This document shows, piece by piece, positions 1,142-5,588 of a DNA stretch of 5,588 nt (position 1 is the stretch's first letter; each line of letters opens with the position of its first letter). This stretch comes from Escherichia coli. Its GTDB lineage: Bacteria; Pseudomonadota; Gammaproteobacteria; Enterobacterales; Enterobacteriaceae. Where the stretch lies: the NCBI RefSeq assembly GCF_003334785.1, contig NZ_QOWV01000043.1. One strand, given 5' to 3'. The notes beneath the pieces are model-generated. The model worked only from the letters and a program-made list of their open reading frames with translations. It was not told the DNA's origin and searched no databases. Made by a program: the position numbers and the translations under genes.

Positions 1142-1470
1142 TATCTCACTCCATGTCGCCTCTCTTATAACAAAATCGTCTCAATTTTATTTTGTCACTA
1201 AGTGATTATCAAATGTTTTTGTTGTGATTTGCTTATGTTGTTAAATGTCTATGTCATGTTATCAGTGTTTTTATATAAAGATATATTGATATTTTTATGA
1301 TGGTGAAAAATCATATTTTCTTTTATATTCATTTGGTTATGCTTGTTTGTTCTGCATTTTGGGGATGACAGAAAAGAATGGGCTGTGTTGATCACATGCG
1401 CCGTATGCGCTCTCCAGGTTACAGCGCACCTCAATATTCAGTGTTTTCCTGTTGACTGGCATTGTTAATC

Positions 1471-2724: not shown

Positions 2725-3297
2725 TCAACAGGCGTATAACAGGTACTCGTCAATCATCAGTTCCAGCTCGCGCTTTTCCCGTTTGCGCGCCACAGCCCAG
2801 TTTTCAAGCTCTGCATGTGATTTATGCTTTAACTCTTCAGTCCAGGGCTGCATGGAGTGGGCACACATCAGATCATACCAGCACAGCCATATTAGCGTGT
2901 GGTAGAGATCACGATCGTCGAAACGCCGGAGCAGGCTGTTCAGCCTGTTTGCCAGCCGGCTTTCGCCCAGACGATGTAGCTCACTGAGTAAAACGCCGCC
3001 CAGATTAAAATGCGTAAGCAGCATGATTTCATGGGTCTGAATGCTGGTCATTAACCCTTCCTGAATGGCAGGAATGAACGGTGGCGTTCCCGGGTTGACG
3101 ACCTGATAGAGTCCCTGTGGTGCCACTGAGATGATGGTGCCTTTTTCCGGTAGAAAAAAGTGGGCCAGGGTCAGGCGGTGATAACCATGAAGATGCGGAG
3201 AGCCCATTCCATGAGCGACAATAAACCGGGTTACACTTGCCATCCATTTCTGATGCTGAATTAGCAGCAGATCACACCGGTTTTCAAGTTTTTGCAT
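2725..3297 (-). CDS. Hypothetical protein, 190 aa, likely co-transcribed downstream of alpA
   Basis: ATG at 3295-3297 preceded by AGGAG (reverse complement of plus 3306-3310) with an 8-nt spacer. It starts 85 bp after the alpA stop on the same strand, with no terminator visible between them. G+C resembles alpA. In enterobacterial islands the gene after alpA is often annotated as an inovirus Gp2 / YfjJ-YagK-type protein, but I cannot confirm that from sequence memory. Confidence 0.75.
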   Translation of the reverse strand: MQKLENRCDLLLIQHQKWMASVTRFIVAHGMGSPHLHGYHRLTLAHFFLPEKGTIISVAPQGLYQVVNPGTPPFIPAIQEGLMTSIQTHEIMLLTHFNLGGVLLSELHRLGESRLANRLNSLLRRFDDRDLYHTLIWLCWYDLMCAHSMQPWTEELKHKSHAELENWAVARKREKRELELMIDEYLLYAC

Positions 3298-3382: not shown

Positions 3383-3589
3383 TTACGGACGGGATTGTGC
3401 AATACGCGCCTGCAACCAGGCTTCCACTTCACTTTTCAGCCATCGGGAGCTGCGGCCGAGTTTGATGGGGGCCGGAAAGGCACCATCTTTGATGAGCTTA
3501 TAAAACCACTTATCGGTTAAGCCGGTCAGTTGAGTGATAAACGCCATGTCGACCATCTGGTCATCCATCAGCGAAACTGGGGTCTTCAT
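3383..3589 (-). CDS. alpA: AlpA-family phage/island transcriptional regulator (excision activator-like), 68 aa
   Basis: Translation MKTPVSLMDDQMVDMAFITQLTGLTDKWFYKLIKDGAFPAPIKLGRSSRWLKSEVEAWLQARIAQSRP carries the characteristic AlpA/Vis-type helix-turn-helix signature (LTGL...Y.LIK.G.FP.PIKLG..S.RW...EVEAWL). ATG at 3587-3589 is preceded by GGAGG (reverse complement of plus 3599-3603) with a 9-nt spacer. Size is typical of the family. Confidence 0.88.
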   Translation of the reverse strand: MKTPVSLMDDQMVDMAFITQLTGLTDKWFYKLIKDGAFPAPIKLGRSSRWLKSEVEAWLQARIAQSRP

Positions 3590-3971
3590 GAAAATGTTCC
3601 TCCGGATGTTGTTAATCTCAACCGGCGTTGGTGATGAAAACGACGCACCACCTTCACCGGCATAACAACCGGGGAGAAACGTAAAAAAGTTGAGGAATAT
3701 TCCTGCCAGGAGAGAAACTGTTGTGTACAGGCAATACAGGTTGTCTGTTTTGTCAGTGAAGCCGGTATAAACGGAAGATGATTTTGTGTTGCCGGAATAT
3801 GGGATGGCGTTTTGCCGTGACGGAATCAGTATTTTCAGTGATGATTATTACTGCGCAGGGGAGTATCGGAGATAAACCACGCCCTGTACCTGCCAGAGCT
3901 GTGGTTTGTATTTACTGAAAGGAAGATAAAGCAGAGGTAAACACTGTTGCGGTGAACGGAGAAGACTGAAA

Positions 3972-4763
3972 TTATTCTCTGTAATTACAAACAACAGTGA
4001 TCTGATCCGGTTTTTTTACCGTTACGGGTTTCCGGGGATCAATTTTATAGACCGGGGTAATGACCACGCCGGAATTTATGGAGAAAAGCGGGATCCAGCA
4101 ATAAACGTCCGGATATTTCTGTGTCTCCGGAATACCTTTTGCGCCAGAGGCCATCAGATCTTTAACGCTCACGAAAAATGACTGCCGCAGATCAAAAAAG
4201 TACTCGTCATATATCACGTCTTTTGCCAGCAGGATGACTGCATTACCAACAGCCACTTTTACAGGTGTTTCGCCCGATGGATTATCGTGATTGTATATTG
4301 TTCTTTCGATATAAATAAAACAGGCATATTTCGTCTTCTCCCCGGATAGCTGCATCTGGTATTCGCAAATGTCTTTGATATACCGACTTTCAACCCTTCC
4401 AATCATCTTATCCCGGCGATAGTGTCTTTTATGTTTCAGCGCGTACAGAACACCATTTGAACTGTCAAACTCCAGGACTCTTCTGGTGAAAAGTTTGTTT
4501 TCCCAGATTTCCAGACAATACTTCTCTGCACTGACGACATTGCGTTTGCGAGGAAGATCCCGTTGATACACTCCATTTAATAAGCGTGACTGCAGTTCGC
4601 CTGCAAGTTGATAATAACAGTTAATATCGTTAAGGACAGGTGCTGTGGCGCTGAGTAATGCGTCGATTACCTTAGAGCGCGAAAGTTTGTGGGTATGACA
4701 GTACTCATCCACAATTCGCAGCGTCTCATCACTAGTCATATTGAAAGTTATACGTGTTGTCAT
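3972..4763 (-). CDS. Hypothetical protein, 263 aa; N-terminal ribbon-helix-helix DNA-binding domain fused to a C-terminal domain of about 220 aa with unknown function
   Basis: A 264-codon open frame (about 43% G+C in a hand-counted sample at 4201-4260). ATG at 4761-4763 is the first possible in-frame start, since an in-frame stop lies 6 codons upstream. N-terminal residues TRITFNMTSDETLRIVDEYCHTHKLSRSKVIDALLSAT match a strand-helix-turn-helix RHH pattern (compare the NikR N-domain RVTITLDDDLLETLD...). No obvious Shine-Dalgarno: the upstream sequence is aacagaaaacttcatcATG. Confidence 0.75.
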   Translation of the reverse strand: MTTRITFNMTSDETLRIVDEYCHTHKLSRSKVIDALLSATAPVLNDINCYYQLAGELQSRLLNGVYQRDLPRKRNVVSAEKYCLEIWENKLFTRRVLEFDSSNGVLYALKHKRHYRRDKMIGRVESRYIKDICEYQMQLSGEKTKYACFIYIERTIYNHDNPSGETPVKVAVGNAVILLAKDVIYDEYFFDLRQSFFVSVKDLMASGAKGIPETQKYPDVYCWIPLFSINSGVVITPVYKIDPRKPVTVKKPDQITVVCNYRE

Positions 4764-5086
4764 GATGAAGTTTTCTGTTAATCATATTGGTTGATATGCA
4801 TAACATTCCATAAAAAACACTGTTAATTCATATAATTAATTTTTTTGTGTGTTTTTTCCTTGAGTGGTAGAAAGCAGGGTTACTGCCACTGTACTCAGCA
4901 TAACTCTATCACATAGAACCACAGAAAATGAAGCATTGCTCAGGGGGGAGGTACTTATACGAGTTCTCTGAACCGTGATAACCAGTATTTTTCATGTTGG
5001 GTGATTTGTCGTTACAGCTACAGGCAGTTCATGTACTATTAAAAAATAATTAAGGTTAATTAGTATTATTTATAGAAGTATGGTTA

Positions 5087-5286
5087 TGTAAATGAACCCT
5101 GTAATTCCACCTTGTAACCCAATCCTGTAGACGGATCTCTCATAAAGATATGCTCATAGAAGTATCTGTACAGAGATATTCTCTGTAGTAGTACTTGTAA
5201 CTCTGTCCTTAACTCTCTCTGCTGTAATGTAATCTCGTAACACCTGAATATAAATCTGTCATGTACACACACTGACTGTAATGTAC
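5087..5286. repeat. Cluster of TGTA-core short repeats (candidate operator or iteron array)
   Basis: About eleven TGTA/CGTA-core motifs in roughly 200 bp: ctgtaat at 5099, 5222 and 5276; ttgtaac at 5112 and 5195; ctgtag at 5125 and 5183; ctgtaca at 5166; tgtaca at 5262. The 10-mer ctgtaatgta recurs at 5222-5231 and 5276-5285. The cluster lies 320-520 bp upstream of the 263-aa gene start. Confidence 0.45.
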
Positions 5287-5428
5287 TTTGTTAAGTAATG
5301 CCTGTTGTGTGGAGGCTATTCTGGCTAAATAAGAGTATGAATCGTCAGTGTCAATAGTGTGGATAACGGTGGTTGAGGGAGAACTGTTAATGTTTTGCTT
5401 TTGCAGTTCACCTGATGAATTTTGGTAG

Positions 5429-5437: not shown

Positions 5438-5588
5438 ATTGTGATCGTAAAAAGTATACCTTATGCCATTAAACAGTCTTCTGGAGTGTTGTTTACTAGT
5501 AAGCGACTCGTCAGAACCGTATTGATATTTACTGAGAGCTCAGATCAACTTTCCAGGGCAACAGATCGCGTACCCGGTTTGCCGGCCA

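Follow-up and report, generated by a model that had tools for sequence, protein, structure and literature searches.

What does a protein of 263 residues, with a DNA-binding head and a large body that resembles nothing familiar, do beside the excision regulator of an Escherichia coli island? The question is raised by a stretch of 5,588 nucleotides of E. coli DNA (contig NZ_QOWV01000043.1), referred to here as the window, for which an earlier note had described such a gene, assigned it an N-terminal ribbon-helix-helix (RHH) domain and suggested that it might be an uncharacterised regulator or effector, possibly in phage defence. We conclude that the protein is an RHH fusion and probably a regulator, and that nothing points to phage defence.

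The gene and its family

3972..4763, minus strand, stop codon included: coding sequence of a 263-aa protein of the YagM family (PF27701/UCP007319), from the ORF list, RefSeq, BLASTP and Pfam

In the ORF list of the window this reading frame starts with ATG and encodes 263 aa, exactly as the earlier note had it. RefSeq holds the identical protein (WP_001364476.1) as a "hypothetical protein", and newer PGAP runs label the near-identical allele WP_001375313.1 "YagM family protein". Together with its leader, the gene is present in 759 of 5,426 complete genomes, chromosomal every time, the dN/dS between its E. coli alleles is 0.23-0.32, and full-length homologues of 45-57% identity occur in Citrobacter, Pectobacterium, Hafnia, Cedecea, Klebsiella and Enterobacter. 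Taken together, these findings mark it as a real gene under selection. The window as a whole is chromosomal island DNA of E. coli, at least 80% of which is found in 126 complete genomes at 98-99.9% identity, and it is a mosaic with insertion sequence scars, including an IS1 transposase remnant at 2322-2468. Its last 90 bases (5499-5588) are unmatched in otherwise near-identical genomes, and an IS3-family element breaks this area in some of them.

The protein aligns over its full length with K-12 YagM (BLASTP, 25% identity over 262 aa, E 1e-15), and PF27701 (UCP007319) is a precomputed assignment on a 96%-identical cluster representative and on all 26 homologues. A Pfam-A scan, one of the checks proposed earlier, gave no match to the 263-aa protein at E <= 10 because the copy scanned lacks the PF27701 model; across 25 family members it gave only sub-threshold matches to DUF6364 and none to an RHH model. 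On sequence grounds the protein is a member of the YagM/UCP007319 family, which is catalogued and uncharacterised. The earlier description of the protein as uncharacterised thus holds for the function of the family but not for its existence, already recorded as YagM, PF27701 and the PGAP name, and since the matched family is itself uncharacterised, the full-length match does not displace the idea of a new regulator. A 2024 list of the E. coli K-12 genes that are still uncharacterised includes yagM (PMC11551758), and our search of the literature on yagM, UCP007319, yagK and yfjJ found no functional study, only hits in high-throughput screens and lists of Rho-termination sites. The family is rare, in that only 44 of 1.84 billion cluster representatives matched its profile at E <= 1e-3 in an exhaustive search, some 18 of them full length (230-290 aa). 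Structure-based matches in AFDB50 are the YagM family itself, all from Enterobacterales and Aeromonas, and a narrower family alignment used as the query led to six related loci.

A ribbon-helix-helix head joined to a family-specific domain

4563..4763, minus strand: RHH DNA-binding domain, residues 1-67 (strand at about 3-9, RITFNM; helix 12-25; helix 29-67)
3975..4535, minus strand: family-specific alpha/beta C-terminal domain, residues 77-263

The family alignment begins with the pattern M-x-x-R-I-T-F-N...T-L...D-x-Y.....S-R-S-x-V-I-x-x-L-L, in which S30 is invariant and which, judged by sequence, is the strand/helix/turn/helix signature of RHH proteins. In the AlphaFold2 monomer model (pLDDT 82) an extended N-terminus is followed by helix 12-25 and a long helix 29-67, which extends into a long helix that probably serves dimerisation. 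The strand-helix-helix topology, over about 45 residues, is similar to that of solved RHH domains, and in structure the N-terminal part best matches antitoxins of the ParD/PrpA type. Searched against all PDB sequences, the family profile has CopG as its best match (hmmsearch, residues 1-39) at an E value of only 0.18, and hhalign of the family with CopG gives a probability of 87% and E 3.9e-6 as a single comparison. The NCBIfam aCcr1 RHH model matches residues 6-33 weakly (E 0.0025, far below its cut-off), a match that recurs independently in a 30%-identical Providencia homologue, and UniProt calls some family members "CopG/RHH domain-containing"; NCBIfam gave no significant match to the protein. 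The evidence from sequence comparison is weak when taken by itself, with no Pfam RHH model matching, but together with the AlphaFold2 model, the structural matches and the CopG alignment it makes the RHH assignment of the earlier note well supported.

The C-terminal domain carries conserved residues at E125, R154, F190-D191, G207 and C222-W223-P225. In a fold model built on an alignment of 24 sequences it is compact and confidently predicted; it has no detectable structural relative, and PDB sequence searches with the family profiles gave no match to it. The combination of RHH and C-domain is invariant across all full-length homologues, and the C-domain is never found alone or joined to anything else. 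The fusion of an RHH domain to a large domain of no recognisable function is thus as the earlier note read it. What is new in this analysis is the lack of a detectable structural relative for the C-domain, which is a target for structure determination, and the candidate operator described below.

Such a fusion could in principle be a self-contained effector, toxin-antitoxin-like or anti-phage, in which a ParD-like head is joined to a toxic or defensive C-domain. The ParD/PrpA-type structural matches, the unassigned function of a C-domain with conserved E125, R154 and D191, and the defence systems that the islands carry nearby (BREX, type I R-M and Dpd) are all consistent with this. However, these systems lie in a variable slot and the YagM-like gene in the conserved island core, the C-domain stays with its RHH head, and no catalytic motif was found. 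Also against defence, which the earlier note had entertained, no homologue was found in 50,697 phage records, no PADLOC-DB family matched at E <= 0.1, and no PHROG family matched. There is no gene within 800 bp upstream and no adjacent toxin or partner gene. Moreover, a screen of the ASKA library recovered K-12 yagM as a resistance-conferring clone (PMC8228696), which argues indirectly against gross toxicity. We consider an effector of this kind highly improbable.

A conserved dyad precedes the start codon

4777..4804, no strand: 28-bp imperfect dyad, candidate RHH operator, at a conserved position in 12 independent homologous loci

Read along the gene strand (4804-4777), the dyad is GTTATGCAT-ATCAACCAAT-ATGATTAAC and ends 13 nt before the ATG. 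The element, whose general form is GTTATGCAT-N10-ATGCATAAC and which is perfect in locus L014, stands at this position in the 12 loci, one of which is a 4.1-kb Providencia plasmid. Its distance to the start codon is 4-13 nt in the window, in Citrobacter, in both Pectobacterium loci, in Hafnia, Cedecea, Klebsiella and Enterobacter, in L013 and L014/15 and on the Providencia plasmid. The dyad is kept before homologues of just 20-57% protein identity, where the flanking DNA cannot be aligned, and all dyad-bearing homologues retain the R-I-T-F-N/S strand. In about 230 kb of DNA from the homologous loci the pattern, allowing up to three mismatches, is found elsewhere once. An unbiased scan of 241 million metagenome records for the exact dyad gave 15 matches, a third of them (5/15) directly upstream of ORFs that match the family HMM at E 1e-54 to 1e-65, a very large enrichment given how rare the family is. 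The regulator reading of the earlier note gains support from this operator-like element.

Loci with alpA followed on the same strand by the gene (K-12 yagM, L010-L012 and L022) have no dyad, and neither does L008, in which IS1 lies upstream of the gene; an equivalent dyad was looked for upstream of alpA in loci where the gene comes after alpA, and none was found. Autoregulation through the dyad therefore cannot be universal in the family. Within the window, half-site-like sequences number 6 against 1.84 +/- 1.24 expected, a count reached in 0 of 200 shuffles, which is suggestive only. A direct pair of such sequences resembling the dyad arms (ATGCAGAAC-N4-AAGCATAAC, 1336-1357, minus strand) lies upstream of a 339-aa ORF, in about 1.2 kb of AT-rich DNA (1142-2320, 29-35% GC) that is devoid of notable ORFs and extends from that ORF to the IS1 remnant. 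Rfam has no match in this DNA or elsewhere in the window.

The 20 nt before the ATG (TTAACAGAAAACTTCATC) hold no Shine-Dalgarno sequence, whereas alpA has GGAGG and the 190-aa ORF that follows it has AAGGAG. The earlier note had made this observation correctly and took it as a hint of low or regulated translation, but a better explanation than generic low translation is that the operator-like dyad takes up the space directly in front of the start codon, a trait of the family. Only 4-5 nt separate dyad and AUG in the P0049-like clade, and the occupation of this space by the dyad implies unusual translation initiation across the dyad clade.

5050..5092, minus strand: promoter-like site directed toward the gene, TTTACA-16-AATAAT (10/12), from consensus match and conservation only

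No sigma-70 promoter consensus overlaps the dyad. The promoter-like site further upstream is overlapped by a 17-mer, ATACTAATTAACCTTAA, which occurs also in L014 (5821-5837) and L015 (5820-5836), where the YagM-like protein is about 20% identical, and a related element, TATACTAAAAACCCAAAT, is found in the Citrobacter and Pectobacterium loci. The site at 5050-5092 is a possible distal promoter with a leader of about 300 nt, and the 17-mer region may serve as such a promoter or be bound by the Gp2-like protein described below. Transcripts starting there would carry the dyad within a long leader. The non-coding region at 5099-5294, also upstream of the gene, has direct repeats rich in TACAG/CTGTAAT, a 19-mer in three copies and a 10-mer in four, that look iteron-like in sequence, and a 20-nt near-palindrome lies at 5157-5199.

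Such a leader raises the idea that the dyad acts as RNA, as a hairpin before the AUG that controls the translation or stability of an mRNA lacking a Shine-Dalgarno sequence, with or without a protein. The position of the dyad, which ends where a Shine-Dalgarno sequence usually stands, fits this idea, as does the promoter-like site 300 nt upstream, and RNA folding predicts a hairpin in the perfect-palindrome clade (L014, z -2.5) and a weaker one in the window. However, the other z-scores are -0.5 to -1.4, and the dyads of Citrobacter and Hafnia are not predicted to form a hairpin at all. Furthermore, there is almost no variation in the left arm, which is far better conserved than the right, and that in the right arm is uncompensated. 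The uncompensated arm differences and the inconsistent hairpin prediction favour a protein-DNA site over an RNA structure, and we regard an RNA function of the dyad as very unlikely.

The gene lies in the conserved core of CP4-type islands

3383..3589, minus strand: alpA, 68 aa, AlpA/excisionase-family HTH protein (TIGR01764 and phrog_66 matches, PGAP)
3881..3899, minus strand: weak terminator-like hairpin between the YagM-like gene and alpA, from a consensus scan only

The earlier note put the gene immediately upstream of alpA, and alpA is indeed the next gene on the same strand, but a 382-bp spacer and a weak hairpin lie between them. Its view of a horizontally acquired island, with the gene beside an AlpA excision regulator, is supported: each island locus that we examined has an AlpA gene no more than two genes away from the YagM-family gene, which sits at the integrase/AlpA end of a CP4-type island and adjoins a YagK/YfjJ gene (PF11726/PF23343, "inovirus-type Gp2"). 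The regulatory end of these islands is int-alpA-yagM-(yagL)-yagK, and the YagM-like gene is always there. Three arrangements are seen. In the first, alpA, the yagM-like gene, (a yagL-like gene) and yagK follow one another on one strand, as in K-12 CP4-6, L010-L012 and a Salmonella contig. In the second, the yagM-like gene is divergent from yagK-alpA and heads an array of YfjP-like GTPase, DUF932, YfjT, antirestriction, RadC and CbeA/CbtA genes. The third is that of the window, in which alpA and the 190-aa ORF come after the gene and a yagK homologue is found beyond the window, over 1.2 kb upstream.

Two further ORFs share the minus strand. The 190-aa ORF (2725-3297), directly after alpA, has no match in NCBIfam, PHROGs or PADLOC; in Citrobacter (L004) alpA is likewise followed by an ORF, of 191 aa, so that alpA and this ORF may be a conserved pair. 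The 339-aa ORF (122-1141) is named variously by PGAP ("replication regulatory protein RepB" or "hypothetical"), and its sole match is a weak one in NCBIfam to a RepA/CopB-type regulator (residues 291-334, E 0.013). Its C-terminus (KAINIHIRSNVKEMLDELRTVYGLRTGEFFEMLI) resembles a second RHH-type motif, placed at the C-terminal end of a large protein. Comparison of the YagM family with both proteins by hhalign gave no relationship.

The only true plasmid with a homologue is the circular 4,136-bp Providencia plasmid (L009, NZ_CP114799.1), which has three genes. A serine recombinase gene comes after the YagM-like gene, just as yagL comes after yagM in K-12, and the third encodes a 381-aa protein of no assigned family with distant relatives on 5.1-kb Shigella plasmids. 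With the same dyad before its YagM-family gene, this plasmid would be a minimal system for testing family function. A Salmonella match described as a plasmid was rejected as a case of plasmid carriage, since the contig is linear and has an integrase gene and is thus a fragment of a chromosomal island.

The gene order and the Providencia plasmid support another function, that of a DNA-binding accessory factor for island replication, mobilisation or recombination, the RHH domain marking a site for YagK/YfjJ, a YagL-type serine recombinase or integrase/AlpA. CopG with RepB and TraY with TraI are plasmid examples of this mode, and since CopG is also a repressor, such a function overlaps with repression. 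However, it is with the start codon of the YagM-like gene, 4-13 nt away, that the dyad is associated, and not with the YagK or recombinase genes. The window has no adjacent recombinase gene and its YagK homologue is distant, and no nick-site or iteron evidence was found. We consider an accessory role of this kind unlikely.

A proposed mechanism and its significance

We propose, as a reading that we hold to be fairly probable, that in integrative islands of the CP4-6/CP4-57 type the YagM-family protein acts as an RHH transcription factor, autoregulated via the dyad. The conserved dyad beside the gene lends indirect support to an RHH dimer that would bind repeated DNA sites through an antiparallel beta-ribbon. 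From the conserved features described above we infer that the protein binds the dyad and represses, and we infer the role of the C-domain, although another factor could recognise the dyad. Specifically, the RHH domain would dimerise and insert its two-stranded beta-ribbon (R4, T6 and N8) into the major groove, the likely target being the 28-bp dyad GTTATGCAT-N10-ATGATTAAC that lies 13 nt before its own start codon, and once bound there the protein would act as a repressor of its own gene. In the ancestral gene order, the operon with this gene at its head, from the YfjP-like GTPase to CbtA/CbeA, would come under its control as well, and perhaps the divergent yagK-alpA unit too. With a 6-N16-6 spacing the outer hexamers would be two helical turns apart, and helix 29-67 and the C-domain may join two RHH dimers so that both half-sites are bound together, may receive a signal, or both.

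A more far-reaching version would make the protein the master switch of CP4-type islands, a repressor whose C-domain senses a helper phage, a conjugative element or stress. Sensing would free the RHH domain from the dyad and turn on the genes of excision (alpA/int) and of Gp2-like replication (yagK/yfjJ). We think this version quite unlikely.

Islands of the CP4-6/CP4-57/CP4-44 type are among the commonest mobile elements of E. coli, as the frequency given above for this allele alone illustrates, and carry adhesins, toxin-antitoxin pairs and defence cargo. The RHH head and a specific candidate operator turn a "hypothetical protein" into a testable hypothesis.

Comparison with known systems

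The closest named relative is K-12 YagM (b0279, CP4-6 prophage), with which the window protein shares full-length homology, the two-domain architecture and an island module adjoining an AlpA-type gene and yagK. In contrast to YagM, it belongs to a different subclade and lacks the 35-residue N-terminal extension, and its gene is preceded by the dyad, which is absent before K-12 yagM, has no yagL-type gene after it and heads its own unit.

A type II antitoxin of the ParD kind would be a small protein encoded in an operon with a toxin, whereas the YagM-like protein is 263 aa long and the next gene in its direction is alpA, 382 bp downstream. Unlike the ParD/PrpA-type antitoxins, which are three times shorter, it has no cognate toxin gene and has a folded C-domain where they have a toxin-wrapping tail. 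If the protein were a master switch, it would be analogous to the Stl repressors of phage-inducible chromosomal islands, built from unrelated parts.

NikR likewise has an RHH head followed by a larger C-terminal domain, and its operator, GTATGA-N16-TCATAC, has the same 6-N16-6 geometry and length of 28 bp as the dyad; the ACT-like metal-binding tetramerisation domain of NikR-type proteins was not found in the C-terminal part of the YagM-like protein. The likeness to CopG of plasmid pMV158, the RHH repressor of the copG-repB operon, covers both protein and locus. Over its first 38 residues the protein aligns with CopG from one end to the other, the gene of the family adjoins one for a protein like a rolling-circle initiator (YagK/YfjJ), and a symmetric DNA element lies at the gene's own promoter region. 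CopG is a repressor, as we propose for the YagM-like protein, but it consists of 45 aa with no extra domain, whereas the YagM-like protein continues for about 220 residues more.
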